Source: a virus. Taken from it: 43,707 bases of DNA. This document shows, one piece after another, positions 10,059 to 43,665 of the stretch. The stretch is from UHGV virus genome UHGV-0360526. One strand, 5' to 3'. Every line of letters begins with the position of its first letter. Position 1 is the stretch's first letter. The position numbers and the translations under genes were made by a program. The notes under the pieces were generated by a model, which saw nothing but the letters and a program-made list of their open reading frames with translations, was not told the DNA's origin and searched no databases.

Positions 10059-10104
10059 TCCTACCGCCCGATTCTATGGGCGGTAGGAGTTTTTATTTTT
10101 TTTT
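10059..10104 (+). terminator. rho-independent terminator
   Basis: Stem ctcctaccgccc-gattctat-gggcggtaggag followed by tttttatttttttttg. Confidence 0.75.
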
Positions 10105-10120
10105 GATCTGGGAGGTTTTA

Positions 10121-10681
10121 GTGACTACTTACGTACCTGATTTAAGTCTGGCCTCAGCCGAATTGGTGGTCGCTTTAATCAACCACGATAACGGTTCACG
10201 GTTGTCTCTAAGCGAAATCCGTATTAGCAACACTACGGCAAACCCGTCCCCGACCACGTCGCGTCGTAACACAATGACAGAGATTACAAAAATCAGGAAA
10301 CCTGATGGCGCTTCTGTGGTTGTTTATTACGACCGTTTGGATGCGGACGAAGTGTTAGCGTCTGAACCTATTTTGATTTCGTTAGACGGTACTGAAGACA
10401 ACCTTCGCGACATTTTAGGTGTTGTAAATGAATTCTGCGGAACGAACTTACAACCCGAGGATTTACGTGCTTCAGATATCACCTTAGGTAACGAACCCAT
10501 TGCTGTTAACGTTGCCGACGATTCTCCTGCGTGGATGAATGCGTTTATGGTAACGTTATTCGATACAACCGAACGAGCATTAGCAAACGAAGATGATGCG
10601 ATCTTCTGTATTGGTGATGATGCTGTTCTTACCTTTGAGGTTCCAGATGACGACTCAGTTGAAGAAAACCCGGCTACATGA
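10121..10681 (+). CDS. hypothetical protein carrying a C-terminal domain shared with the 644-aa protein at 16081
   Basis: Listed ORF starts at 10076 inside the terminator hairpin; GTG at 10121 preceded by RBS ggagg is a more plausible start; C-terminus (YYDRL..CGTNLQPEDL..DDAVLTF) aligns with C-terminus of ORF 16081-18015. Confidence 0.5.
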   Translation: MTTYVPDLSLASAELVVALINHDNGSRLSLSEIRISNTTANPSPTTSRRNTMTEITKIRKPDGASVVVYYDRLDADEVLASEPILISLDGTEDNLRDILGVVNEFCGTNLQPEDLRASDITLGNEPIAVNVADDSPAWMNAFMVTLFDTTERALANEDDAIFCIGDDAVLTFEVPDDDSVEENPAT

Positions 10682-10887: not shown

Positions 10888-13800
10888 ATGGCTAAAGCGG
10901 TAAAGAAAATTCGTTTACACGATTTACGTCCGTACACCGGCGATATCGGTGAAGGCGTTTTACTTTTTTCGAAAGACGAAAGGGATTATCAGTTACCTGT
11001 CCGAGAGATTGTTGCGGATATTGACACCGTCAGAAACGCGGTTGCTGACGCACAAACGGCTGCAGCCAAATCGCAACAGTCTGCAACAGAAGCTACGCAA
11101 GCAAAAGACTTAGCAGAAGCAGCGAAGCAAGAAACTGACACGTTAGCTTCCACCATTAGCGAGCAAGCGAAAACCGTTGCTACTAAAACTGCTGAGGTTA
11201 GCAAAAAACACGCTGAAGTTTTAGCCGCGAAAACTGCCGTAGATACCGTATCACAATCGGTAAATGAGAAAGCTCAAGCTGTTGCCACAAGCGAACAATC
11301 GGTGACGGCCGCAGTGGCAGATGTAACTAAGAAAGCAGAAACGGTTACGCAAAAAGCCGGGCAAGTACAACAGACGGCTACCAGTATCGCAAATACCGCA
11401 GCTTCAGTTGAGGCCAGTAAGGGCGCAGTGGAAAAGGTTGCTGCGCAGGTCACGAAAGATAAAGAAAGCTCAGAAGGCGCAGCTACGCGCTCGGAATCAG
11501 CTGCACTGCGTGCGGAGAAAATCGCTGCACAGGGCTTAATCGACGCTAGTACGACTGGTAAAGGTATCGTTAAACTTAACAATACCCTGACTAGCGAATC
11601 CGTGACGGAGGCTGCTACACCGTCTACAGTTAAGCAGTTGAATGACGAACTACAGTTAAAGGCTAACAAACATTCGCCGAATTTTACGGGTAAGCCGACG
11701 TCACCAACACCCCCGAAAGATTCAAACGACACGAGCATCTCCACAACGGCTTGGGTGCGTGCCGCGATTGCGGAATTGGTTGGGTCTTCACCTGAAACGT
11801 TAGATACCTTAGCGGAATTAGCCGAGGCGTTAGGTAATGACCCTAACTTCGCGACTACGATTACTGAGAAACTTGCGCAGAAGCAACCTATCAGTCCGCT
11901 ACTCACCGCTATTGCCGCAGTCACATCCGCAGCAAACAAGCTCCCCTATTTCACCGGTGCTAATAAAGTCGGATTAACTGACTTTACAGAAACAGCCAGA
12001 ACCCTGTTAGCGAAAGGGACAACTGCGGATATCATCAATTTCTTGGGATTAAAGGCCACTGTAGATAAAGCGAATGGCGCGTTACAGAAAAACTCTAACG
12101 GCGCTGATATCCCAGATAAAGAAACGTTTGCCCGCAATATCGGCCTATCGCCTGACACCTATCTGCGTTTCCGTGGCGAAATGCCTCTAGATGCTGATAT
12201 TAACACATTTGCTCCAAATACCAATTACACAGGAACGTGGGCTAAGTCGACATCAACCAATGCGTCGATGGCAAAACACTTCCCAGAAGACGGTGCGGTC
12301 GGTTATCTGGAAGTGTATAAAGCCGGTAATTACAGCGGTGCGCAACGTTTTACCTGTCGTAATGGTAACGTGTACAACCGTATGTTGTCAGGTGCGTGGA
12401 ATGGTGCCAATGGACCCTGGTCACCGTGGAGAATGGTAACTACTGGTGTACGTCCGTTATCTACCTCTATAGACTTGAACTCTCTGGGTGGCGCTGAGCA
12501 TATGGGTAACTGGCGAAACTCGTCCAGTTCGCTGGCTGTTTTTAGCAGACATTACCCTGAAGAAGGTGGTGGCGCGCAAGGCGTACTAGAAGTAATGGAA
12601 GGTGGTCTTTTCGGACGGTTGCAACGATACACCACACGTCGTGGTACGATGTATGTTCGTGGTTTGACCGCAACATGGGATTCATCAAACCCGCAATGGG
12701 AAGATTGGATTCAGGTTGGTTATCAGACTGACGGTGCTTTCTTTAAAGCCAATTTTAACGATCTCGTTAAACCGGGACGTTTCAGTGTCACTGGTGAAGC
12801 AACTAATGGTCCACTTACCGGTTCTTCTGGTGAAACCATATTAGGCGTTTGTGAAGTTACCTTACGCTTAGACGGTACAGGGGTCGAACAGAATTATACT
12901 ACATACGGTACGGGTGTAGAAACTAAAGGTCGTAAATTCCAACGTATCCGTACGGGTAACGCTTGGAGTGACTGGCGTGAGGTTTTCACATCGTATTCGC
13001 TTCCGCTGGTATTAGGTATCGGCGGTGAACGTGCGAATGTTGATCCTTTAGACTGGCAAACCTATGACTTTAAACCGGGTGAGTTAATCTGTACGCCGCT
13101 TAACACCATGAAAAACATTCCTGCGGGAATGGATTGGGGTGTTATTGACGGTAACTTAGTTAGCATTCTGGTTGGTCCATCAGATGGCGCATCCTCAGGC
13201 CGGAGTATGTTGGTTTGGCGTAGTACGGTGTCTACTGCCAACTATCGATTCTTTGCAGTACGTATCGCTGGTGAGAAAGGTAGTCGTACGATTACGCCAC
13301 GACAGATGCCTGTATTGAATGCAGCACACACCTGGGCAGAAAAACAGACCTTTGCAAAAGGGTTAGCAGGCGAGTTAACAGGCAATGCTTCAACCGCAAC
13401 GAAATTAAAGACCGCACGTAGAATTGGTGGAGTCGCTTTCGACGGTAGTGGTGATATTAACCTCCCAGGTGTTAACCAACAGGGCAATCAAAACACCACG
13501 GGTAATGCTGGTACAGCCACTAAACTTCAAACCGCCAGAAATATTAACGGTGTGAGGTTCGATGGTTCTGCTGACATCAACATCAACACTCTGGTGGGCC
13601 GTGGTCGGGTTACTGCTCTATCCGGATCAAACAAAGGTACGCCCGGTATTCAGATGTACGAAGTTTACAATAACGGTTATCCGACCGCTTATGGTAACTT
13701 GCTGCATTTGGGCGGTTCTACCGCAGTGGGTGAAGGTGAACTGTTAATCGGTTGGTCGGGCACGAGCGGTGCGCACGCACCCGTTTATATTCGTAGTCGT

Positions 13801-15486
13801 CGAGACACTAACGATGCACCGTGGTCAGATTGGGCACAAGTTTATACTGCCCGTGACAGTATTCCTGGTGTAAATGCTACCGGTAATCAAGATACTACCG
13901 GCAACGCCGCTACCGCGACGAAACTGAAAACCGCTCGCAGAATCGGCGGCGTTACCTTTGACGGTACTGGGGATATCAATTTACCAGGGGTTAACCAGCA
14001 AGGCAACCAGAATACGACAGGTAATGCAGCAACCGCTACCAAGTTACAAACAGGACGTAGGATCGGTGGTGTGGTTTTCGATGGGACGAAAGACGTTAAT
14101 CTTCCTGGAGTAAACCAAGCCGGTAACCAACCGACTACGGGGAATGCTGCGACTGCGACTAAGCTCCAGACTGCACGAAATATAGGTGGCGTAGCTTTTG
14201 ATGGCACTAAGGACATCAATTTACCTGGCGTAAACCAGACGGGTAATCAGTCGACCACCGGAAACGCGGCCACTGCAACAAAGTTGCAAACTGCAAGAAC
14301 CATCAACGGTATTGCGTTTGACGGCACTAAAAACATCGAAATAACGGCTGAGAGTTTAAATCTTGGTCAAACTGTAGAATTGGCCGGTGGGTCATTGCAG
14401 AAGAAACAGAACGGTGCCGATATTCCAGATAAAAGGAAATTCTTACGAAATGTTGGTGCCCCGAACACAACAACCATATCTTTTAATGGTGGTGCCGGAT
14501 GGTTCAAACTGGCAACTGTAACGATGCCACAAGCCAGTTCCGTGGTTTACATAAGCATGATTGGCGGTGCAGGGTTTAACGTTGGTTCCCCGCATCAAGC
14601 GGGTATTTCTGAGCTGGTTCTGCGCGCCGGGAATGGAAATCCAAAAGGTATCACTGGTGCTTTATGGCGACTGACCTCAGTCGGCTTTACTAATTTTGCA
14701 TGGGTGAATACATCTGGTGACACCTACGATATTTATGTTGAAATAGGTAATTACGCCACGGGTGTTAACATTCAGTGGGATTACACCAGTAACGCCAGCG
14801 TAACGATCCATACAACGCCAAGTTATACGGCTAATAAACCAGCAGGACTAACAGACGGAAACGTCTATCTGATTTATAGCACACACAACAAACCTAACGC
14901 TGGTGACATCGGTGCATTACCGTCAGGGGGCGGTACTATAGGTGGCGATTTAACCGTTAACGGTAAATTGGTCACTAAGTACCCTGATTTTCGAATCGCT
15001 TACGGCAACTACGGCTTTATGTTACGTAACGATGGTGCCAATACCTATTTCTTAGTAACCGACGCCGGACAAGCTGCAACGGGTTCCTGGAACGGACTAC
15101 GTCCGTTGTATTTTAATAACGCTAACGGCCAAGTAACCTTTGGTCATAACGTTACTGGCAGCGGTAACGGTTCGTTTAACGACGTACAGATTCGTTCTGA
15201 CCGTCGTAACAAACGTAATCTGGTGAAACTGGATAAAGCTTTGGATCGGTTAGAGTTACTAACCGGTTATTTGTACGAAATTCAGCATCCGGATGACGGT
15301 TGGCAAACCTCTGTAGGTCTAATTGCTCAAGACGCATTAGAAGCGTTACCTGAACTTGTGTCTGAGGATGATGATGCCATTTCAGGCGAAAAACGTTTAC
15401 GTCTAAATTACAATGGTGTTATTGCGCTGTTAGTAGAGGGTATGAAGTCTCTTCGCCGAGAGCTTAAAGAGCTTAAGGAGAAATAA
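10888..15486 (+). CDS. long tail fibre protein with tandem fibre repeats and C-terminal intramolecular chaperone (peptidase S74-like) domain
   Basis: 1532 aa; Ala/Thr/Gln-rich coiled-coil-like N-terminal region; six ~40-aa repeats (GNQxTTGNAATATKLQTARxIGGVxFDGTxDINLPGVNQ); C-terminal SDRRNKRN...GLIAQD...LRLNYNGVIALLVEG resembles the autoproteolytic chaperone domain of phage fibres/endosialidases. Confidence 0.8.
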   Translation: MAKAVKKIRLHDLRPYTGDIGEGVLLFSKDERDYQLPVREIVADIDTVRNAVADAQTAAAKSQQSATEATQAKDLAEAAKQETDTLASTISEQAKTVATKTAEVSKKHAEVLAAKTAVDTVSQSVNEKAQAVATSEQSVTAAVADVTKKAETVTQKAGQVQQTATSIANTAASVEASKGAVEKVAAQVTKDKESSEGAATRSESAALRAEKIAAQGLIDASTTGKGIVKLNNTLTSESVTEAATPSTVKQLNDELQLKANKHSPNFTGKPTSPTPPKDSNDTSISTTAWVRAAIAELVGSSPETLDTLAELAEALGNDPNFATTITEKLAQKQPISPLLTAIAAVTSAANKLPYFTGANKVGLTDFTETARTLLAKGTTADIINFLGLKATVDKANGALQKNSNGADIPDKETFARNIGLSPDTYLRFRGEMPLDADINTFAPNTNYTGTWAKSTSTNASMAKHFPEDGAVGYLEVYKAGNYSGAQRFTCRNGNVYNRMLSGAWNGANGPWSPWRMVTTGVRPLSTSIDLNSLGGAEHMGNWRNSSSSLAVFSRHYPEEGGGAQGVLEVMEGGLFGRLQRYTTRRGTMYVRGLTATWDSSNPQWEDWIQVGYQTDGAFFKANFNDLVKPGRFSVTGEATNGPLTGSSGETILGVCEVTLRLDGTGVEQNYTTYGTGVETKGRKFQRIRTGNAWSDWREVFTSYSLPLVLGIGGERANVDPLDWQTYDFKPGELICTPLNTMKNIPAGMDWGVIDGNLVSILVGPSDGASSGRSMLVWRSTVSTANYRFFAVRIAGEKGSRTITPRQMPVLNAAHTWAEKQTFAKGLAGELTGNASTATKLKTARRIGGVAFDGSGDINLPGVNQQGNQNTTGNAGTATKLQTARNINGVRFDGSADININTLVGRGRVTALSGSNKGTPGIQMYEVYNNGYPTAYGNLLHLGGSTAVGEGELLIGWSGTSGAHAPVYIRSRRDTNDAPWSDWAQVYTARDSIPGVNATGNQDTTGNAATATKLKTARRIGGVTFDGTGDINLPGVNQQGNQNTTGNAATATKLQTGRRIGGVVFDGTKDVNLPGVNQAGNQPTTGNAATATKLQTARNIGGVAFDGTKDINLPGVNQTGNQSTTGNAATATKLQTARTINGIAFDGTKNIEITAESLNLGQTVELAGGSLQKKQNGADIPDKRKFLRNVGAPNTTTISFNGGAGWFKLATVTMPQASSVVYISMIGGAGFNVGSPHQAGISELVLRAGNGNPKGITGALWRLTSVGFTNFAWVNTSGDTYDIYVEIGNYATGVNIQWDYTSNASVTIHTTPSYTANKPAGLTDGNVYLIYSTHNKPNAGDIGALPSGGGTIGGDLTVNGKLVTKYPDFRIAYGNYGFMLRNDGANTYFLVTDAGQAATGSWNGLRPLYFNNANGQVTFGHNVTGSGNGSFNDVQIRSDRRNKRNLVKLDKALDRLELLTGYLYEIQHPDDGWQTSVGLIAQDALEALPELVSEDDDAISGEKRLRLNYNGVIALLVEGMKSLRRELKELKEK
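13381..14361 (+). repeat. in-frame tandem coding repeats (~120 nt / 40 aa) within the tail fibre gene
   Basis: Two copies at 13381-13590 and four at 13882-14361 encode GNQxTTGNAATATKLQTARxIGGVxFDGTxDINLPGVNQ; copies differ mainly at synonymous positions. Confidence 0.8.
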
Positions 15487-15489
15487 AAA

Positions 15490-15993
15490 ATGGGGGTAGC
15501 ATCTGGATGGGTCGGTTCTTCGGCCAAGAACGAAACGGGCGAACAATGGATGAGCGCTGCTGGTAGTAAATTAGGACTGGGTAGACCTTTTATGATGAGT
15601 CAAATGGTGGGAAGATCTATGGGCTGTAAAATTGCAACCGCTGCATATAGCGATTCTTTAGGTAAGAAATGGGGCGCGGTAGGACCAAGCTGGCCGTTAA
15701 ACCAGAAAAATCAGGGAACCATTCAAAACGCTGGTAACTGCGGGGTGGGAACTTTAGTAGGTATCGAGTTACAGTTAACGACGGTAGTTGCTAACGCAAA
15801 GCCTACTTTAGCGGTTTACTTACAAGGCGGCAGAACCTCTAACATTACCGTAAATTTAGGTGGCAACACCTGCGCGCTGACCTATCAGCAGGTTATTAAC
15901 GGACAGCATTATTACTGGACTAATAACATCAGCGCTGCGTTCCAAAACGTGATGAAATCAACAGGCGCACTACGTGATTTGAGAATTAGCTAA
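15490..15993 (+). CDS. hypothetical Gly-rich protein downstream of tail fibre (possible fibre accessory or adhesin)
   Basis: 167-aa ORF starting 4 nt after the fibre stop; Gly/Asn-rich; function inferred only from position. Confidence 0.4.
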   Translation: MGVASGWVGSSAKNETGEQWMSAAGSKLGLGRPFMMSQMVGRSMGCKIATAAYSDSLGKKWGAVGPSWPLNQKNQGTIQNAGNCGVGTLVGIELQLTTVVANAKPTLAVYLQGGRTSNITVNLGGNTCALTYQQVINGQHYYWTNNISAAFQNVMKSTGALRDLRIS

Positions 15994-16080: not shown

Positions 16081-18015
16081 ATGATGTTGGTGCGCGATAT
16101 TAAAGATTACACCGAACTAACAGCATACGCGTTAAATTCGTTGTTAACACTTGACAAACCAGAAATATTCGACGAATCCGTCACGATGACGGTAGACCAA
16201 GAAACGAACTATGATTACGTTGGTCAAGTTACTGGTCGTGTTTCTGTGGCTAGTCCCACTGAATATAAAATTGCGATGTATACCTATACAACGGGAGAGT
16301 ACGCGCAAGGTGAATCACCATTAAACGAATCAGGTGAGTTTAATTTTAAACGAACATGGCCGGGGACAAAACAATTTCGTTTAATTAGAATTGCTGATGG
16401 CAAATGGATTTCTACGTTAGAGTTCCCATTGTGCATACGTAGTTACCATATGCCAGAAAACGCGGACCCTGAAACGATCAGGATTATGAAAGATCGTTGT
16501 TATACTTACGATCAGGCTGTTGCTACTCTTGCATTAATGGCCTACGGTCATGAAAAGGTAGAACAGTTTGTAAAAGGTCTTTTAGCGCTGGTCAATGAAG
16601 ACGGTGGTGTTAAATTCTACGTAAACCGACTTTCGGCTAAATCTTCGCGAAATTATTACCGTATGGGCAACGTCGCGTGGGTACTTTACGCTTTAGCTTT
16701 TTATCTTGAAAAATTTCCTGCCGGAAATCTAGCGGCACAGGTTCATGAAAAATTAACACTTTCCTTAACCTGGCTGGAAACTTATAAGGTAACGCAGGAG
16801 ACAGATCGCCGCAAAGGTTTATATCTTGGTGGAAAGGGTCGTTTTGTTACTACCGAATCAGGCGAACGTGTTTTTGAAGAAGACTACGTTGCACCTTTTG
16901 CGGCTTTAGAACATCAGGTAGATATTTGGTTCCTGTTCGAATTACTAGGGCGCGTCGGTTTTGATGCATACCAACAAAAAGCAGCGGACTTCGGTAATAG
17001 AATAGTAGAAGCTTTTTGGATGGAAGACGAAGGACGTTTTCGTCAGGGTGTGAGAGAAACAGAAGATGATAACGCAGCTGCGTTAGATCAGTCCAGTTGG
17101 GGTGGGCTATTTGCGGCCAAATTTAAACCAGAGTACGCCGAACGTTGTCACGCTTTTATGGAGAAATTTCGTTCGGAAACCTCTGAGTGTCGTGGCTACA
17201 CACCATACAAAACCGAGTTTGGTTACCCTACTGCTAAAGAAGGGGTGTGGGTTGAAGGTGCCGCCGGTGTTGCGTTATTCGAACGTCAGTTAGGAAATGA
17301 TAAACGTGCTGTTGAGATCATTAACGACTTAGATGTTCTTTTATCAGAATACGGTTATCGTGATTCTTGCGATGATCCTACCTACGATACGCTGCCGCCG
17401 TGGTGGTCAACCACAAACACTGCATGGGTGCTTTTAGTCTGTAAGCCAAGTAATTTTTGGCTTGTAGATAAGCCTCCTTTAACGGAGAGATATAATCCGC
17501 AGAATAAATTTTTACCAGATATTTCATTAAACTCTTTAAATCTTGTAATTTCGTTAGTGAATCACGATTTAAAAACAGATTACACGGAGTCTGATGTTGA
17601 AATCAGCAAGATTTCACTTAGCACGGAAGAAAATCGTGACACAACAGCGATAATGGAAATAAAACGTCCTAATAAACGGTCGTTACAGATCTATTACAAC
17701 CGTTTAACCGCAGCGCGGTGGTTAAACCAGCAACCTATTCTGGTAAAGGTCACCGGTAACGGTTTTACTACACGCGATCTGATCGACGGAATTAACGCGG
17801 CTTGTGGTTGTAATTTACAACCCGACGATCTTACTGACGACACATTTACCGTAGGGAAAGACGCTGTAACGTTACAGGTTTCACCCAACTCGTTAGGTTA
17901 TAAAGGTCAATTCTCCGTTCTGGTTTTCGGTAACGATGAAGAAGCCGCTGTGGTAAAAGACAACGATTTAATCGTTACCGCAGATAACCGTGTCTTAACA
18001 TTCGGAGGTCACTAA
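16081..18015 (+). CDS. putative (alpha/alpha)6-barrel glycoside-hydrolase-like virion protein with C-terminal fibre-docking-like domain
   Basis: 644 aa; central region has repeated helix-pair signatures (YDQAVATLALMAYG, NVAWVLYALAFY, LDQSSWGGL, TNTAWVLLV) typical of six-hairpin glycosidases; C-terminus homologous to ORF 10121-10681; enzyme assignment is tentative. Confidence 0.35.
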   Translation: MMLVRDIKDYTELTAYALNSLLTLDKPEIFDESVTMTVDQETNYDYVGQVTGRVSVASPTEYKIAMYTYTTGEYAQGESPLNESGEFNFKRTWPGTKQFRLIRIADGKWISTLEFPLCIRSYHMPENADPETIRIMKDRCYTYDQAVATLALMAYGHEKVEQFVKGLLALVNEDGGVKFYVNRLSAKSSRNYYRMGNVAWVLYALAFYLEKFPAGNLAAQVHEKLTLSLTWLETYKVTQETDRRKGLYLGGKGRFVTTESGERVFEEDYVAPFAALEHQVDIWFLFELLGRVGFDAYQQKAADFGNRIVEAFWMEDEGRFRQGVRETEDDNAAALDQSSWGGLFAAKFKPEYAERCHAFMEKFRSETSECRGYTPYKTEFGYPTAKEGVWVEGAAGVALFERQLGNDKRAVEIINDLDVLLSEYGYRDSCDDPTYDTLPPWWSTTNTAWVLLVCKPSNFWLVDKPPLTERYNPQNKFLPDISLNSLNLVISLVNHDLKTDYTESDVEISKISLSTEENRDTTAIMEIKRPNKRSLQIYYNRLTAARWLNQQPILVKVTGNGFTTRDLIDGINAACGCNLQPDDLTDDTFTVGKDAVTLQVSPNSLGYKGQFSVLVFGNDEEAAVVKDNDLIVTADNRVLTFGGH

Positions 18016-18687: not shown

Positions 18688-18732
18688 TCAGATATATATT
18701 ACCTAGAGGAGAGCGAAATTTACATTCGCTCT
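18688..18732 (+). promoter_or_regulatory. conserved promoter-like motif plus 5' hairpin, copy 2
   Basis: tcagatatatattacctag followed by hairpin agagcgaa-atttaca-ttcgctct; 28 nt before ATG 18760. Confidence 0.45.
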
Positions 18733-22790: not shown

Positions 22791-23061
22791 AACTATTGTA
22801 TTTTGTCAAAACGGTGATGTAAAACAATACCGGGGCAAGAAGTTAATTCGTACGTTAGAATACCGAGAAGCAAAACGTTTTGTTGAAGAGTGTGCGTGGT
22901 TGATGCACTACGAAGGGAACTATCGCGCCATCTTAGAAGCACCGCGTTTAGAACGTGCAGTTGCGCAGATGGCGATAGGTAATCCTAAGAACTGTTACCT
23001 GGCCCGTAAGCCAAAATACCTACAGCGTGTCTCGCTAGGTAGTTTTATTGCAGGATTTTAA
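22780..23061 (+). CDS. hypothetical protein (start uncertain; listed ORF begins 22732)
   Basis: In-frame ATG at 22780 with RBS gggag; overlaps upstream stop. Confidence 0.4.
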   Translation: MKRETIVFCQNGDVKQYRGKKLIRTLEYREAKRFVEECAWLMHYEGNYRAILEAPRLERAVAQMAIGNPKNCYLARKPKYLQRVSLGSFIAGF

Positions 23062-23072
23062 TAAAAATAATT

Positions 23073-23113
23073 TCAGATATATATTACCTAGGTGAGAGTA
23101 CAAAAGCTCTCAC
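23073..23113 (+). promoter_or_regulatory. conserved promoter-like motif plus 5' hairpin, copy 3
   Basis: tcagatatatattacctag identical to copy at 18688, followed by hairpin gtgagag-tacaaaag-ctctcac; 29 nt before ATG 23142. Confidence 0.45.
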
Positions 23114-23141: not shown

Positions 23142-23408
23142 ATGAACTTCACTAAAGCTGATTATGCTAAAGAATTCGTTTCTAAAGAAGATTACAAGTT
23201 TACTGTTGAACTAGACTACGTATTAACTGAAGATGAAAAAGATGCGCTGTATAAAGCGTTCCGCAAACACTTCGGTGCGTTGTTCTTTATGGGTTTCCGT
23301 AAAGACTCTATCGATATTGGCTATACTGTCGCAGTACGTACCGATGAGGAAATGTTCAATATGGTGTGTGAAATCGTCAGTACCATTACTGCTAAACGTG
23401 CGATTTAA
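23142..23408 (+). CDS. hypothetical small protein (monocistronic unit)
   Basis: 88-aa ORF with RBS aggag, bracketed by promoter-like motif and terminator. Confidence 0.6.
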   Translation: MNFTKADYAKEFVSKEDYKFTVELDYVLTEDEKDALYKAFRKHFGALFFMGFRKDSIDIGYTVAVRTDEEMFNMVCEIVSTITAKRAI

Positions 23409-32362: not shown

Positions 32363-32910
32363 TCATCGTCTCCTTTAATCAACCCTAATTCGATTAACAA
32401 TTCAAAATCGATATGACGGAATCTTGTGTCGAAGTCCGATTCCCAATCGATACGGATACCCTGGCATTCTTCTGGCGTTAGCTCAGGAAAAATCACGGTA
32501 TTAAATTTCTCTCGCTCATCGTAAAACCCATCAATCGGTGAGTTCGGGTTACGTGTTGCGAAGATAGTAATGCCGGGGAAGGACAATGCCAACACAGTGA
32601 TAGATTCTGCGCTGGGTTCGCTTAAAGAGCGGCGTAGAAACGCAATTTTGTGACGTGGGAAATCCAATACCCGTTCTTCAAACCCTGGGTTACGTTTTTC
32701 AATTTCCGCGACCGACAGGTCAGTAAGTTCGGTGCAGTACATTGGGATGATTACAGTCACGCCGTGACGAATCAGTAAGCGTTTTACGTCATCGGTAAAA
32801 TCTTCACCGTTAATCACCACATAACAACCGAATAGCTTACTGTTTTCCAGAAACTTATCCAGAAGTCGAATTCTACGCTTCGTAATATTGTTGATCAGAA
32901 TTGGTTTCAT
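32338..32910 (-). CDS. hypothetical protein
   Basis: 190-aa ORF; start overlaps the 3' end of the radical SAM gene. Confidence 0.5.
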   Translation of the reverse strand: MKPILINNITKRRIRLLDKFLENSKLFGCYVVINGEDFTDDVKRLLIRHGVTVIIPMYCTELTDLSVAEIEKRNPGFEERVLDFPRHKIAFLRRSLSEPSAESITVLALSFPGITIFATRNPNSPIDGFYDEREKFNTVIFPELTPEECQGIRIDWESDFDTRFRHIDFELLIELGLIKGDDECLLLVKA

Positions 32911-34195
32911 CTTTGGCTTCTCTTAATAATTTTTCCTTTTGGGCACGTTCACGAACACAGCGTGGGCAATAACACATGCTCGTGTCGTGGAACGCTTTTG
33001 CTGACGTCGTACCCATCTTCTGTTTCCAGTATTCCGCCACCATCAGTTTCGCTGTCGTCCAGCCACACTGACGACGTTCAGCGTGATACGCTTTACGGTC
33101 TTCTAACGTTCCTTCCCCGTTCTCGTAAGAAGCCGCCGCACAGCTACCACAAGCGTGTTTCATCGGACAACCTAAACAGGTCTCTGGGTAGTTGGTATAT
33201 TGCGTTTGAATCTCTTCTAACAATTTACCGTTGTCCAGACTGACGAATTCCCGACCTACCAACTCAAACACCGCAGAACGCGACGTTACCGTTGACATAA
33301 AGCGGTTACAGCCAAAGATCTTACGGTCAAATCCTAAGCACGTCATGTGGGTTAACGTCCCGCAGAACGGACGTAAACGTTCTGGGTTCAACCGTACAGT
33401 GTCATTATACAGTAACTGGTCACGCCAGTTCGGTTCCCAAATCGTATCGAAATCCAACCCTTCTGGAATGATGTGCGATAAGATATTACGTGGATTGGTG
33501 TGTAATCCTTTTTCAACCCAATAATCTATCACATCCATCATCTGTAAAGCGATTGATGTCGCCATGCTACGCGGCATAACGTCTTCGAAGGTTACGTTCC
33601 CAGAAATTGTCCCACCGCCAGTAATGTCAATTAATGACTTCATCCCCGCAGCATAGAACGGCAGTGTTTCTAACGTAAAGGTCGCTTTTACGCCGAGTTC
33701 TGCAATACCAACCTCTTTTAAGTAATTATAGCCACGTACTGCGGCTTCGTAAGAACCCTGACGCGTCGTTGTGAAGATACGATAGCGGTCATGGGATTCA
33801 GGTAAACCATCAATCGAAACCCCAACCGAAAGTTTGTCTTTCCAACGTTCTACAATCTCACGGTTCAACGGACGATCTAACAGCGTTCCGTTCGTGGAGA
33901 TACTAAACATAAACGGTCGGTTGTGTTCTTTACACAACTGCTCAGCGGTTTCAAACGCAGCCAGCAGCAGTTTAGGCTGCATGAACGGTTCACCACCGAT
34001 AATGTCGATAATAACTTCGACATTCGGTTCGTTTTTATCACGTTCAAAACAGGCGTGTAAGAAATCAACAATGTCAGCCGCTTTGTTGTTACGTGGGTAC
34101 TTACGTTCGTAGCAATATTCGCAGTCCAGGTTACACGAAAGGTTGGTTACGATCTGATACGTTAACTGCTTAGGGAATTCATTTACTTGACTCAT
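32873..34195 (-). CDS. radical SAM enzyme with C-terminal SPASM-like domain (peptide-maturase-like)
   Basis: 440 aa; CNLDCEYC (CxxxCxxC) near N-terminus, GGEP SAM-binding motif, C-terminal Cys clusters CGTLTHMTCLGFDRKIFGCNRF and CLGCPMKHACGSCAAAS. Confidence 0.8.
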   Translation of the reverse strand: MSQVNEFPKQLTYQIVTNLSCNLDCEYCYERKYPRNNKAADIVDFLHACFERDKNEPNVEVIIDIIGGEPFMQPKLLLAAFETAEQLCKEHNRPFMFSISTNGTLLDRPLNREIVERWKDKLSVGVSIDGLPESHDRYRIFTTTRQGSYEAAVRGYNYLKEVGIAELGVKATFTLETLPFYAAGMKSLIDITGGGTISGNVTFEDVMPRSMATSIALQMMDVIDYWVEKGLHTNPRNILSHIIPEGLDFDTIWEPNWRDQLLYNDTVRLNPERLRPFCGTLTHMTCLGFDRKIFGCNRFMSTVTSRSAVFELVGREFVSLDNGKLLEEIQTQYTNYPETCLGCPMKHACGSCAAASYENGEGTLEDRKAYHAERRQCGWTTAKLMVAEYWKQKMGTTSAKAFHDTSMCYCPRCVRERAQKEKLLREAKDETNSDQQYYEA

Positions 34196-36160: not shown

Positions 36161-36367
36161 TTACCTTCCCCCCGCACCTTTACTACAGCTACCACTGCAC
36201 GACCAGCTACATCCGCCGTTACAGTTATAATGGCTTAAAGGTAAACCGGCAAGGTTATTGGTTGAAGACACGGTGCCCTGGTTTGCAATATAGTTGTTTG
36301 CGTTAGCGGTCGTAATATACCCTTCCGCTGTTACTAACCGATCACGAAGGTTCTTAAGGCTAATCAC
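36161..36367 (-). CDS. CxxxC-repeat Cys-rich peptide 3 (short core)
   Basis: Listed ORF 36161-36433 overlaps peptide 2 out of frame; GTG at 36367 preceded by gggagg gives VISLKNLRDRL..., matching the leaders of peptides 1 and 2; core CNGGCSWSCSGSCSKGAGGR. Confidence 0.5.
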   Translation of the reverse strand: MISLKNLRDRLVTAEGYITTANANNYIANQGTVSSTNNLAGLPLSHYNCNGGCSWSCSGSCSKGAGGR

Positions 36368-38481: not shown

Positions 38482-41400
38482 TTAAGATGTAAACATAAGA
38501 TTGAACTGGAGCTTATCGATATCGCGGGTTTGTGCTGGGTTAACCGCATCGTACGTGGTTGCCACGTAGACCGTTAATGTCCCGTCAGCAAACGAGGTTT
38601 TCACCGGTGGCGTAGTCCCTGTTTGTCCGTCGGTTACAATGACGACAGGTTGAGCCGGGAGTTGATGGAACTGACCCTTAACCGCTTTATACACCAAACC
38701 AGATTGTGCTGCTAACTCCGTGTCGGTATACACGATAAACGGTGTGTCGATATCTGTCTGTTTAATGACAGTGTTCGACTCAACGTCAATCAACTGAACA
38801 GCACCGAACTTCGTACGGTAGCTATCGTATTCATTTTTTGGAATGACAAACGTAGCATGTATACGGACTTCTTCGGCTGGCTTAAATCCGGCGTGTTCTT
38901 TTTCCAGATAACTGTTAGCGGTTAACGTTACTGTCTGTTCAGCCATCGTACCGCCAGACTGGTTTAACCCGTAACGAACTTGGGTTATACCTGTCGGAGC
39001 CGCAAGCCTGATTTTTAGTCTACGATTAGCGGTGCCGGGATTACCAGGCACTTTAACACGCAGACTCAGCGCCAGATATGCATTCGCACCGGTAGTCGGT
39101 TTCGTATACGCGCCCAACCACTTCATGTTCGCAGTTGCCGCTTGACTGTTCTCAGAAGCAGTAGCCGCAGCAACGTTTGCAGCAACCGCTTTCTGCCAGA
39201 ACTGGTCAGCGCAGTTTTCATACGCTACTCTACCGATACTTTTATAACCTGCGTAGGTTTCCTGTATCGGTAGCTTGGGTCGTGTTGTAACCCCGTTCAA
39301 CGCATTCCATTTCTGACCATCGACATACCCCGCACCATTACTCGCAGATGCCGTAGGGGCTTTCAGTGGTTGGTTAACTAAGGTTTGAAGTGGACCCGTT
39401 TTTCGATCGTACGCCGCTGCAACGTCGTGCTGATCTCTAACGGCAGCATGTTCTTCTAATTCACGAACCCTGCCTAGTCGTTTCACTTTATCGATGTTGA
39501 TAGCAACTATGCGCTTTTTATCGGTTGTAACTGTACCAACAAATAATCGCGAAGTCGTATCCGGCAGCTTTTCCAGACCGATCTGATATTGAGCCTTCGA
39601 ACCTACAAGAGCAGCATGAACATAGAACGTCTGGTTAGCATGGTTTTCTGGGAATTCGTTGCTTAAATCCACCGACCACGTCGGTAATGTATAGCTATTA
39701 CTACCGAAATCTAACCTGACCTCTTCCGTCAAGTATAGAATCCAACCTTCCGCGGTTTCCACGCCTGCGATAATAACTGCCTGCCCCGCTGTTGAGAATG
39801 TGGTATCATTAACGAACTCTTCGACTGTGTATGCGTTACCTGAACAGAAAACGCGGTCAGCTTTAGAGAAAATTCGTGCCATCTTGTCCCAATTACCCGC
39901 ACCCATGTAACAACCAGATTCTGGGTTGTGGGCAGGAGCCATCTGACGCAACTGTGACTTACCGGGAACTCGCGTCCAACCCGACCCAGGGTTAAAGGTA
40001 TACTTCGCAGCGTAACCCAAAGCATTTAGGTCCCCGATATTCCGTATTGTCAGCGTATAAGGTAGCCATAGACCGAAGTTTACACCGTCGGCAGAAGCAA
40101 AAATTGGCTGGCCTACACGTCGCGTTTTATTACCCGCTTCTTCCCTCAGAGACTGATAACTTAAGCCGTAATCAAGGTCTAAGAACCAATCTACCAGCTT
40201 AAAGGTTGCAGAATTAAAACGTAGATAACCGTTTTCTTTAGTCGGACTCACCATGAAGTAATAGATGTCGAGGACTCGACGTCCGTTACTCAAGGTTTTC
40301 ATGCATGAGACTTGTAATAAGTCGAACTCACAAACAGTGTTAATGCCTAGCAACCAGAGTGCAAACAACGCGTTGCCGCTTTGGTGTGCTGCGCTGATGC
40401 GCTCGTTCGCGTAACCGTTTGCTTGGCCAGATGGTGCACCATCGACAATCATCCTAATCATTTTCTGGCGATCCGCTTCCTCTAACGTCAGCCGTTCTGA
40501 TGACAGGGCAAAGTTACCGTAGATGTTCCGATATGGAAAGGTTTCCGCTTTCGTCAAATACCAACCATTTAACTGACCGTGACGCTCCTCAGGAGTCATA
40601 CATGCAGCCATACAGCTTAACTGTTCGTAAAGGGTTGCATCAACTTCTCGACGGTTGTTGTTCGGGCCATAACCGCTATATCCGGGAACGTCATAAGGTT
40701 TACTTGGGTCAACTTCTACTTCGATCGTATAGCGGTTGCGCGGATTGGATAACCATACTTTGTTTGAGCCACCGATACCAACAGGATGAGAAAGACCGAT
40801 GGTATAGATAGAACCACGACCTTTATCCCAAGTAAATGTTGCTTCGCCTGAGGTATTGTTTGGGTTATCATAACGCAGATAATCAAAAAACTCTTTGCCT
40901 TGCGTACTTTTAATAGTAACATTCGGCATCTGGTCCGCATCGTTAATCTGCCAGCAGGAAAGCATCATTCCTGAGACATTAGGTTTAGCATACGTCGCAA
41001 AACAACGATTGTTTGCTTGGCCGCCACCCCACTTACGACTGGTTTCTACAGTTGAGCCATCCGCGTACGATAGTCTGGTAGCATCAACCTTAATGGGGAA
41101 ACGTTCGGCACCCTCTAACGTAACTCTGCCCGTTAACGTATCGATTGTGAAACTTGTTGACCATTGACGGAAATTAATCGTCGTACCGTCGGCAGCCGCA
41201 AACCACACGCTGGGTACATGGTTCACACGAATCACGCTGTCGCGTACCGCACAAGCATGGTTACATTCTGGACCGTGAACAAAGTTGTGACCGATTGTCC
41301 ATTTAGCCCGTGCCTCTGGCGGGTAATACGTAAAGAACTGACCAGTCTGCGACTCTTCGGTCTTCTGGCCAATTCTTAGGCAGAGGTTATCTCCGAATTG

Positions 41401-43665
41401 CCCCATTTCTCCGGTTAGGGTTACACGTTCAAATTCTAACTCAGTATTGGTAGTCAAATCGGCTTTACGTAAACGCCATACCGCCACAGCATAAGCAGAG
41501 TTATTTACCGTGGAACGAAGAAGATAAACGTGGTCGTCAACTAACACAACATCGTCGGCTTCTGGCCAAGGATTCCAGGTTTGTTCCACAGTACCGCTGG
41601 GGTTGCCATTACGGTACTTAGGCATTGTAACACGACATACCACCGTGTGTTTACTGTGGTCCATCGAACCATTGAACAACACCAAATAACGGTTATTGTC
41701 AGAACCCAGACAAATAATCGCTTCCTGGCCACCGATCAATATCGCTTTTAAGGTCACCCCAGGGTATTTACTCATCCCAACAGGATGGTATTTCACCGAA
41801 GTTTGCTGAGGGTTCACAAACACATTCGACGTATTGATATCAGCATAGCCGTAGTAAATCGCCTCTGTACCAGGTACGCCATTAGAAGCATTACGTAACG
41901 AATAAACTTTACCTTGTTGATATCCTACAACACCTTTCTGATAGGACTGGTTCTTTGTAAAACCTGAATAATTACCGAGCGCCGGAATGGGTAAGAAGTT
42001 TTTGTTACCGAACTTCGCCCCACCGACAGTCCACGCAGGTAAGATGGTATTCAGTTTATCAGAAACTTTCTTGATCTCTTTTGCGAACAACCACCCTTGA
42101 CGCGAAGTGACAGCTTTATCGTTCGTGGTATCAATCGCATCCCACAACTGTAAGATACCATCCACAGTCGCACTGCCAATCGGGACATTATCCAAATCGG
42201 CGGTAGTGTGCGTGTGCTCCTTCACACTTTTATTTTTCAGCACATTCGCTAACGCTTTTGTTACCGGTTTAGCGATCGGCATGGTGTTTTCCATCTTATC
42301 GATACCGAAATCGGTTTTCGTTAAGGTTAACACCATTTTATCGCCTGTCTTAACAAACCCTTTACCGTTAACCGTGTAGTCATCGTCAACGTACAAGTCT
42401 AACCGGTCTTTTAATTCGGTCACCGCCTTTTGGGAAATAGCAGTGCCTAGTGCTACGGAGGTTGCGATATTCGTAATCGAAAACACCCCATAAACCGACT
42501 CGGTTGCTGTGGGAATATTCGCGTTCAACGTTAGCGGATTAGACTGCTTCGCTGTACCGTACGGTTTTACGGTGTCTGATGGTTTGAAATAGGCGTTCGC
42601 TTCAAGTAACGTTACAGACGTCAGGTACATGTTCACCATTTCTGGTGTAACCAAATACACAGAGTTGTAAACCGGCGCTAATACATCTTGTTCTGTCCCA
42701 GAGTGTACCCAAAGCGTATTCAGCCCCGCACTAAATTCAACCGCCAAACCCGATTCGTTGTTGTCCTGGTCTGCTTTAATCACCAACGGTTGCGGTGAGG
42801 TAATTAACCACTTATCACCACGGATACTGATGATGTGTCCGCCTGCGGTTTTAAACGTCAGTTCGTTACCGTTCGTGCTGCCCCATCGACCGTAAACAGT
42901 GCCGAGGGCTTCACCCATTAACTGATCAACGTCTGATTGCTCAATACCCGCCGAACCCATCAGCGTAGCCAATTCGTCAATCGTCAGTCCAAACGCTTTT
43001 GTAGCGTCGACAGCACGTCCCAAAACCGGAAGGGCACCAACATCAGTGGTCGTATACTGGTGTGCGTTAGGATTAAGGTGGTGTTGGTATAACTCCTCGT
43101 CGAAAACCTTTTTACCGTTCTCGTAAATCAGGTTAGTGACTTCGGTAAACGCTGCATCTAACTCTGTTGAACGTTGAACGATTTTCTTACGGATGTCGTT
43201 TAACGCTTTAACAACCTCATCCCTCAGAATAGCTTCTTCTAAGTTAGCAGGAGGATCGATGGGTTGAATAACTGGCGCATACGCCATTAACTCTGACCAG
43301 TCCACGTTACGTGGGTCTTTCAGGTCAGTACGAACTAAGAACTTTCCGATTTCAGATTGTGGTACACGATACTGGCGTGCTACCCCTAAAATCTCATATT
43401 CGATTTCTGTTGCGGTCAGCAACATGAACCCGCCATAAATCTGATCTTGTTCAGCTTCTGCGAGTTCTTTAAAGTAATAGCCTAAATAGTAGTCCAACCC
43501 CTCAATCAGAGTACGACGTCCGTTAGGCGCGGTATCGTCGGCTACTGTGAGTTTTAATCCGATACGATAAAAAGGTCCTTCAGGCGGAATGACCACATTA
43601 AATCGGTTAGGGTACGTCGCTGTGCTTAACGTACCGTTAAACTGCGCCGCGTCTTCTCTCGGCAT
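38482..43665 (-). CDS. giant virion protein (1727 aa), putative tailspike / receptor-binding protein
   Basis: Single uninterrupted ORF; N-terminal region (NRFNVVIPPEGPFYRIGLKLTV) homologous to N-terminus of the adjacent fibre-like protein; RBS aggagt; remainder unassigned. Confidence 0.6.
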   Translation of the reverse strand: MPREDAAQFNGTLSTATYPNRFNVVIPPEGPFYRIGLKLTVADDTAPNGRRTLIEGLDYYLGYYFKELAEAEQDQIYGGFMLLTATEIEYEILGVARQYRVPQSEIGKFLVRTDLKDPRNVDWSELMAYAPVIQPIDPPANLEEAILRDEVVKALNDIRKKIVQRSTELDAAFTEVTNLIYENGKKVFDEELYQHHLNPNAHQYTTTDVGALPVLGRAVDATKAFGLTIDELATLMGSAGIEQSDVDQLMGEALGTVYGRWGSTNGNELTFKTAGGHIISIRGDKWLITSPQPLVIKADQDNNESGLAVEFSAGLNTLWVHSGTEQDVLAPVYNSVYLVTPEMVNMYLTSVTLLEANAYFKPSDTVKPYGTAKQSNPLTLNANIPTATESVYGVFSITNIATSVALGTAISQKAVTELKDRLDLYVDDDYTVNGKGFVKTGDKMVLTLTKTDFGIDKMENTMPIAKPVTKALANVLKNKSVKEHTHTTADLDNVPIGSATVDGILQLWDAIDTTNDKAVTSRQGWLFAKEIKKVSDKLNTILPAWTVGGAKFGNKNFLPIPALGNYSGFTKNQSYQKGVVGYQQGKVYSLRNASNGVPGTEAIYYGYADINTSNVFVNPQQTSVKYHPVGMSKYPGVTLKAILIGGQEAIICLGSDNNRYLVLFNGSMDHSKHTVVCRVTMPKYRNGNPSGTVEQTWNPWPEADDVVLVDDHVYLLRSTVNNSAYAVAVWRLRKADLTTNTELEFERVTLTGEMGQFGDNLCLRIGQKTEESQTGQFFTYYPPEARAKWTIGHNFVHGPECNHACAVRDSVIRVNHVPSVWFAAADGTTINFRQWSTSFTIDTLTGRVTLEGAERFPIKVDATRLSYADGSTVETSRKWGGGQANNRCFATYAKPNVSGMMLSCWQINDADQMPNVTIKSTQGKEFFDYLRYDNPNNTSGEATFTWDKGRGSIYTIGLSHPVGIGGSNKVWLSNPRNRYTIEVEVDPSKPYDVPGYSGYGPNNNRREVDATLYEQLSCMAACMTPEERHGQLNGWYLTKAETFPYRNIYGNFALSSERLTLEEADRQKMIRMIVDGAPSGQANGYANERISAAHQSGNALFALWLLGINTVCEFDLLQVSCMKTLSNGRRVLDIYYFMVSPTKENGYLRFNSATFKLVDWFLDLDYGLSYQSLREEAGNKTRRVGQPIFASADGVNFGLWLPYTLTIRNIGDLNALGYAAKYTFNPGSGWTRVPGKSQLRQMAPAHNPESGCYMGAGNWDKMARIFSKADRVFCSGNAYTVEEFVNDTTFSTAGQAVIIAGVETAEGWILYLTEEVRLDFGSNSYTLPTWSVDLSNEFPENHANQTFYVHAALVGSKAQYQIGLEKLPDTTSRLFVGTVTTDKKRIVAINIDKVKRLGRVRELEEHAAVRDQHDVAAAYDRKTGPLQTLVNQPLKAPTASASNGAGYVDGQKWNALNGVTTRPKLPIQETYAGYKSIGRVAYENCADQFWQKAVAANVAAATASENSQAATANMKWLGAYTKPTTGANAYLALSLRVKVPGNPGTANRRLKIRLAAPTGITQVRYGLNQSGGTMAEQTVTLTANSYLEKEHAGFKPAEEVRIHATFVIPKNEYDSYRTKFGAVQLIDVESNTVIKQTDIDTPFIVYTDTELAAQSGLVYKAVKGQFHQLPAQPVVIVTDGQTGTTPPVKTSFADGTLTVYVATTYDAVNPAQTRDIDKLQFNLMFTS

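Follow-up and report, generated by a model that had tools for sequence, protein, structure and literature searches.

A 43,707-nucleotide (nt) stretch of UHGV virus genome UHGV-0360526 (the window, numbered from its first letter) encodes a phage tail fibre in which a unit of 40 amino acids (aa) occurs six times, with near-identical protein sequence and widely different codons in the several copies. Old duplications followed by purifying selection are the likely explanation of this pattern of conserved protein and scrambled codons, with any selection on the codons themselves a small extra at most. The fibre is an ordinary, mosaic jumbo-phage tail fibre with a very common, uncurated 40-aa repeat.

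Protein and DNA divergence between the units

Pairwise comparison of the four full units (units 1, 3, 4 and 5; Table 1) gave 78-93% identity in protein and 61-74% in DNA. By codon position, identity was 80-97% at positions 1 and 2 and 15-35% at position 3. An original prediction, made from the sequence alone, had claimed near-identical protein with differing codons between copies; this was borne out, and the three codon strings that it quoted are units 3, 4 and 5 verbatim. The Nei-Gojobori method gave a proportion of synonymous differences (pS) of 0.79-1.11 among the full units, which is saturated and uncorrectable, against a proportion of non-synonymous differences (pN) of 0.04-0.16, and equal divergence of nucleotides and amino acids was not seen. 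The corrected synonymous distance (dS) is not computable at pS > 0.75, and simulations were relied on instead; such values are expected where two-fold codons abound and were not taken as lying beyond saturation.

Self-comparison of the gene at both levels gave a strong protein signal for units that DNA repeat finders do not see. Tandem Repeats Finder found no array in the DNA, a seed-10 DNA repeat search recovered no unit, and blastn needed a word size of 7 to recover them (high-scoring segment pairs at 67-74%), whereas chunked blastp between units reached E values of 1e-23 to 1e-36. The blindness of DNA repeat finders to the units is itself evidence of codon scrambling. RecA-type recombination requires roughly 20-30 bp of identity, and since the longest exact DNA match between any units is 11 nt, the array would be effectively protected from unequal homologous crossover.

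Anatomy and distribution of the repeat

The units are centred on the motif TATKL and follow an exact 40-aa period (aa 832 and 872, then 1005, 1045, 1085 and 1125), with the consensus GNAATATKLQTARxIGGVxFDGTAxINLPGVNxxGNQxTT. Six repeats of about 40 aa had been predicted and six were found, but two of them, units 2 and 6, match the others in just their first 27-28 residues (47-57% aa identity over 40) and form a terminal subtype that reads ING where full units have IGG. The span given for the array, 13381-14361, begins correctly at unit 1, but its end falls within unit 6, which is conserved to 14340. A hidden Markov model (HMM) built from the units showed the array to be non-contiguous: unit 2 is interrupted after residue 28 by a 92-aa insert, and its last 13 residues, IPGVNATGNQDTT, reappear directly before unit 3.

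This knob-like insert is the sole part of the modelled region with moderate confidence in the AlphaFold2 (AF2) monomer, where it forms beta strands at a predicted local distance difference test score (pLDDT) of 70-79. Its top Foldseek matches, to the AS12 tailspike (pyocin-knob end) and to R1/R2 pyocin fibres, are weak: 6eu4, 6cl6 and 6cl5 were returned with a probability of 0.98, but with E = 0.03-0.16, a template modelling (TM) score of ~0.17 and a low-confidence model as query. One homologue bears the NCBI name 'pyocin knob domain-containing protein'. When the PDB was searched by sequence with the repeat region, the sole matches were designed 'Cake' beta-propellers and prolyl isomerases, which were dismissed as periodicity artefacts.

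The unit is widespread. Using tblastn, it was found in 180 phage records, including those of P1, SSU5, Goslar and 9g and of phages of Vibrio, Acinetobacter, Shewanella and Prochlorococcus. In IMG/VR it is carried by more than 547 stretches, 80 of which were retrieved, and it also occurs in 3783 proteins at E <= 1e-10 and in at least 20 PHROG families, mostly tail-fibre families. It is not described in the tail-fibre domain literature that was searched.

Arginine codons in the repeats (13381-14379) are AGA or AGG (AGR) in 6/12 cases, compared with ~11% in the rest of the gene. At variable unit position 14 all three arginines are AGR, while at conserved position 13 the codon is AGA in 2/5 and CGN otherwise. 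The pattern at position 14 might stem from codons one step away from those of Lys, Ser or Asn and not from a codon preference.

Relatives and age of the duplications

Five IMG/VR jumbo-phage contigs (L001-L005) carry fibres that are 85-94% identical to that of the window in aa over a 352-aa region. Comparison with these homologous fibres, which the original prediction had proposed, found the same units at the same positions. In all five relatives the DNA closest to a given window unit is its positional counterpart, with an nt identity of 0.75-0.99 at the same position and 0.45-0.77 at different positions. Unit 6 is the exception, at 0.60-0.68 in four loci, because its 3' third enters a mosaic junction, yet the unit at the same position is still its best match. 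This positional orthology in five relatives indicates that the duplications are older than the clade. Concerted evolution was ruled out, since the units group by position, as was recent duplication, since the silent sites are saturated. The array as the target of a diversity-generating retroelement was likewise rejected, since no nucleotide-level pair of template and variable repeats was found within the gene.

Among named phages, the Escherichia jumbo phage vB_EcoM_Goslar has the same 40-aa unit in a 'tail fiber repeat protein' and, like the five contigs, shares the architecture of the window fibre, with units, a knob insert and further units. The Goslar protein is 73% identical in aa over the 352-aa region, and its array has 10 units, whereas block 2 of the window clade has three or four. 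A near-identical full-length relative of the fibre was absent from the phage collection, where megablast covered 10-11% of the gene.

A related fibre with 15 unit matches was observed in another contig (L006:4276-8562; IMG/VR UViG_2778261177_000004). In this fibre the units together with the knob are duplicated internally with a period of 254 aa (762 nt). The copies are 100% identical in nt over the 258-nt knob and the first 180 nt of the next units, and 97% identical over another 225 nt. The duplication is fresh and forms a natural contrast to the scrambled array of the window.

Loss of units in relatives

The number of units is not stable among close relatives. Block 2 holds four units in L001 and L002, and one fewer, three, in L003, L004 and L005. 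Over the rest of the gene from 13864 onward, L003 matches the window at 97-100% identity except that exactly 120 nt are missing, and the junction lies at GTAAACCA, an 8-nt sequence that is the longest stretch shared exactly by units 4 and 5. The simplest reading is a recent microhomology-mediated deletion of one unit in L003, because L001 and L002 keep four units and unit 5 is not newly copied from its neighbours. Shared sequence between units is thus a real liability. Loss of a unit is not obviously lethal, given that L003-L005 are one unit short, and the presence of shortened fibre genes in sequenced contigs weakens the case for strong selection against it.

Origin of the codon differences

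The explanation that is favoured here takes the six units as copies of a widespread 40-residue tail-fibre shaft repeat that would have been duplicated long before the clade diversified. Strong purifying selection would have held the residues, presumably since each unit forms one fixed-length segment of a trimeric shaft, a role suggested by its context in the fibre, and the silent sites would meanwhile have drifted to saturation. Protection from crossover would then be mainly a by-product of age and survivorship, and newly duplicated, nt-identical units such as those in other fibres would be expected to be lost or to diverge in a process of birth and death. Active selection for codon dissimilarity would add little, if anything, in this clade, and unit number could still alter via microhomology-mediated deletion.

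Several results weigh against this account. The shaft role has to be drawn from context, since no match to the units came from Pfam, NCBIfam or PDB sequences, and the PF03406 (Phage_fiber_2) profile did not hit them even when the repeat region was scanned alone at E <= 10. In the AF2 monomer, built on a 33-sequence alignment, the units reach a pLDDT of ~50-65 (57 for the whole model), too low for a fold to be assigned to them. More directly, codon identity was scored at same-residue columns of the six units, and 115/391 pairs (29%) had identical codons against 145-153 (37-39%) from phage codon usage (P ~0.000-0.005; z about -2.7 to -2.9), where neutral saturation predicts equality. When codons were permuted across positions of equal residue over the whole array, 130 identical pairs were expected (P = 0.024), and when the permutation was confined to each unit, 132 (P = 0.013), or 33-34% in the two tests. 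The five orthologous arrays all lean below expectation too.

These deviations are what would be expected if the silent sites in this jumbo-phage clade were actively kept more different than chance, synonymous changes that lower nt identity between units being favoured for reducing recombinational loss or gain of units. Such natural codon scrambling would guard the length of the fibre, and the one-unit deletion at an 8-nt match would be its residual failure mode. In agreement with this, the mean longest in-register exact run between units is 7.1 nt against 9.2 nt simulated, with 0/2000 simulations as low; codon homozygosity in the repeats (0.326) is the flattest in the gene (0.35-0.39 in other parts); and L003 was shortened at the longest match remaining between units 4 and 5. 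The support is uneven, however. The maximum exact run of 11 nt, against 15.1 nt simulated, gave P = 0.10, the permutation on the four full units alone gave P = 0.06, and adjacent pairs of units are not consistently more scrambled than distant ones. The AGR arginines at position 14 may supply part of the deficit relative to codon usage. Differing codons were the very reason for choosing the array, so that nominal P values are inflated and a P of ~0.01 is weak, and the relatives that are one unit short suggest that selection against loss may be weak. Nor was the deficit replicated in a survey of 34 arrays with at least four units, which were grouped into 17 sequence clusters using 18-mers (single linkage on 12-mers merged nearly everything). 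The window clade, whose six arrays share ancestry and count as one observation, is the only cluster of the 17 with z < -1. The median z is +1.8; 12 clusters exceed expectation, eight of which have z above +2, and in four clusters some pairs of units reach a codon identity of 80% or more. In Goslar the codon identity between units is at random expectation (z -0.7 to +0.2), whereas that of the window is below it. Active scrambling was accordingly considered unlikely.

A much less probable origin is the import of the units from donor phages with different codon preferences, in place of divergence within the gene. The gene is a patchwork whose identity to relatives changes block by block, and the changes continue inside the array, where third-position identity of unit 2 is 0.40 to L002 and L003 and 0.80 to L005, and that of unit 6 is 0.95 to L003 and 0.40 to L004. 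The G+C content at third codon positions also ranges from 0.38 to 0.57 among units. The permutation that keeps the codon composition of each unit nevertheless still shows the deficit, and exchange at orthologous positions leaves the order of paralogues unchanged, in keeping with the positional orthology that holds clade-wide. Import accounts for the heterogeneity of the units but not for conserved protein with saturated silent sites, for which old paralogues would still be needed.

A modest, clade-specific deficit of codon identity is therefore present as a weak signal, and the selection against homologous recombination between repeats that the original prediction had proposed is plausible but not demonstrated. 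In its favour stands a codon identity below chance, but age and purifying selection explain the bulk of the pattern, the deficit is seen in one of the 17 clusters, nt-identical duplications occur elsewhere, and three relatives are one unit short. Engineered 'codon scrambling' of repetitive genes is known. No direct precedent was found in the literature for tail-fibre repeats with synonymous divergence. Ackermann and Chao (2006; PMC1378130) report silent-site selection for stability and share the idea that synonymous choice can remove error-prone DNA repeats while the protein is kept; their case concerns mononucleotide runs genome-wide, whereas the present one concerns 120-nt protein repeats with weak support from one clade.

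Landmarks and mosaicism

Outside the array, a duplicated landmark had been taken to suggest that the fibre consists of two concatenated modules. The two stretches, LQKNSNGADIPDKETFARNIG (aa 398-418, nt 12079-12141) and LQKKQNGADIPDKRKFLRNVG (aa 1169-1189, nt 14392-14454), belong to a duplication of 45 aa with 53% aa and 51% nt identity (E = 4e-12). At the first copy the identity to L003 and L004 shifts abruptly, and at the second copy the identity to L001, L002, L004 and L005 switches. Exactly at landmark copy 2 (query 3506, which is nt 14393), Yersinia phages and E. coli phage CMS-2020a begin to match the gene in megablast. The duplication and its association with breakpoints thus hold, but the modules of the fibre number far more than two.

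Since both copies lie at identity breakpoints, the motif marks junctions of module exchange. It aligns with Mu gpS (5yvq) and with 8ju3, and is taken here as a conserved Mu/P1 S-type junction where phages swap whole fibre modules.

The fibre gene and known tail fibres

The protein matched tail-fibre PHROGs, best phrog_6722 (E = 2e-294). Its Pfam matches are Phage_fiber_2, Gp34_trimer and Peptidase_S74, each above the curated cut-off, and its PDB sequence matches are Mu gpS, T4 gp34 and the S16 gp37 tip. This homology, together with the adhesin gene downstream, places it among the long tail fibres of the Mu S / P1 S / T4 gp34-gp37 type. From the N-terminus, the modules are an Ala/Thr/Gln-rich region, one Phage_fiber_2 repeat, landmark 1, two or more diverged domains of ~90 aa in tandem, the array of units with the knob inserted in it, landmark 2, and finally a gp34-like trimer domain and an S74 chaperone. 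The tandem ~90-aa domains add another, older level of internal repeats, one absent from the original prediction, and are probably knob-like, judging by their resemblance to the knob insert.

The LAKDRNGADIPNKPLFIQNLGL of Mu gpS (5yvq) aligns with the window landmark, and the C-terminal Gp34_trimer-like domain aligns too. The window fibre differs from Mu gpS in having the landmark twice, with ~770 residues of knobs and repeats separating landmark 1 from the region that comes after the landmark in Mu gpS. P1-type S genes contain the same 40-aa units, at 62-64% aa identity. Unlike the Mu and P1 fibres, that of the window has an S74 chaperone end followed by a gp38-like adhesin, and not a U/Tfa-type assembly protein. 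No invertible segment was seen, although no search aimed at one was made. With T4 gp34 the fibre has the Gp34_trimer domain in common, and with the S16 gp37-gp38 system it shares both the gp37 tip (6f45), which aligns to aa 1378-1531, and a downstream gene that falls in phrog_1121, a family of tail fibre adhesins. Nothing comparable to the 40-aa units was detected in the solved gp34 or gp37 chains.

A further observation concerns the adhesin gene, in which the 5' ~143 nt (15500-15642) show 97% identity to the ~109-kb record of E. coli phage CMS-2020a. The rest of the window has distant phage matches only. This difference suggests that a jumbo phage and an E. coli phage of far smaller genome have recently exchanged a fibre-tip module. 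The DNA matches of the window as a whole are to Erwinia and Salmonella jumbo phages, all of them distant, and its closest relatives are the IMG/VR contigs, which measure 150-225 kb.

Table 1. Positions of the tail fibre gene, its modules and repeat units, and associated features in the window
Feature	Position (nt)	Strand	Remarks
Tail fibre gene	10888..15486	+	Open reading frame, 1532 aa; PHROG, Pfam and PDB matches
Single Pfam Phage_fiber_2 repeat, separate from the six units	11548..11670 (aa 221-261)	+	E = 9.5e-10
Landmark copy 1	12043..12177 (aa 386-430)	+	Mu/P1 S-type 'NGADIPDK..F..N.G' motif; mosaic breakpoint
Two tandem diverged ~90-aa domains	12175..12717 (aa 430-517, 520-610)	+	36-38% identical; chunked blastp self-comparison, E down to 1e-15
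Shadow open reading frame, 81 aa	13242..13487	-	Broken in L001 and L004
Unit 1, full	13381..13500 (aa 832-871)	+	
Unit 2 N-part, 'ING' terminal subtype	13501..13584 (aa 872-899)	+	
Knob-like insert splitting unit 2, 92 aa	13585..13860 (aa 900-991)	+	AF2 monomer, Foldseek, one NCBI name
Unit 2 C-part, IPGVNATGNQDTT	13861..13899 (aa 992-1004; HMM positions 28-40)	+	
Shadow open reading frame, 110 aa, antisense to units 3-5	13887..14219	-	Shortened by one-unit deletion in L003-L005
Unit 3, full	13900..14019 (aa 1005-1044)	+	
Unit 4, full	14020..14139 (aa 1045-1084)	+	
GTAAACCA, deletion junction in L003	14110..14117 (unit 4), copy 14230-14237 (unit 5)	+	8 nt
120 nt (one unit length) missing from L003	14119..14238	+	
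Unit 5, full	14140..14259 (aa 1085-1124)	+	
Unit 6, conserved N-part only, 'ING' terminal subtype	14260..14340 (aa 1125-1151)	+	
Landmark copy 2	14356..14490 (aa 1157-1201)	+	Mosaic breakpoint
Gp34_trimer-like domain	14914..15111 (aa 1343-1408)	+	Pfam E = 1.5e-16; PDB alignment
Peptidase_S74 intramolecular chaperone domain	15196..15360 (aa 1437-1491)	+	Pfam; S16 gp37 tip 6f45
gp38-like tail fibre adhesin gene, downstream of the fibre gene	15490..15993	+	phrog_1121 'tail fiber adhesin', E = 1.9e-45

Minus-strand frames and other features of the window

The two minus-strand open reading frames (ORFs) opposite the array had been regarded as artefacts of the repeats, and this was upheld. Both occupy the antisense frame that shares third positions with the sense frame, and across the gene this frame has the fewest stops (44, against 77 and 103 in the other antisense frames). 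A stop in it requires a Tyr codon, or a His or Gln codon after a T-ending codon, and the units contain no Tyr or His. The internal 'repeat' of the longer ORF is a reverse-frame reading of the units. Antisense coding genes were rejected on the grounds of this stop bias and of the interruption or shortening of the ORFs in relatives.

A 'virion structural protein' domain (phrog_2935, phrog_1037) is common to two genes, one on each side of the fibre gene and both on the plus strand: a 201-aa ORF upstream (10076-10681) and a 644-aa tail-fibre-like protein downstream (16081-18015), in which it lies at aa 480-634. Its presence in both indicates a small domain duplicated on either side of the fibre gene. 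On the minus strand, 32873-34195 encodes a protein with a radical SAM domain (phrog_1802, E = 2e-114), and 38482-43665 encodes a protein of 1727 aa that matches phrog_7449 from end to end and, more weakly, families of virion structural proteins. No tRNA genes were found in the window.

At 23060-23098 there is a 39-nt AT-rich element containing TATATTAC, which is 95-100% identical in more than 30 SPN3US-like jumbo phages of Salmonella and Erwinia. It sits in unannotated DNA in every such phage, and in the window it is ~45 nt upstream of the ATG at 23143. The TATATTAC motif occurs three times in the window (within 23060-23098, at 18695-18702 on the plus strand and at 36312-36319 on the minus strand), a count not above chance; all three are intergenic and co-oriented with the next gene. 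The element may be a conserved jumbo-phage promoter element, and early promoters of the phiKZ type are presumably similar to it.

Meaning for phage tail fibres

If the codon differences arose by age and purifying selection, little changes: the window adds one more jumbo-phage mosaic tail fibre assembled from already-known mobile modules. A curated profile and a trimer structure for the 40-aa unit would improve tail-fibre annotation. Together with its relatives, the array is also a testable case linking the identity of repeat DNA to stability in phage receptor-binding genes, as it sets a saturated array with matches of at most 11 nt, from which a unit was lost at an 8-nt microhomology, against fresh nt-identical units in related fibres. 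Below-chance codon identity, if true and general, would amount to silent-site selection for genome stability in viruses.

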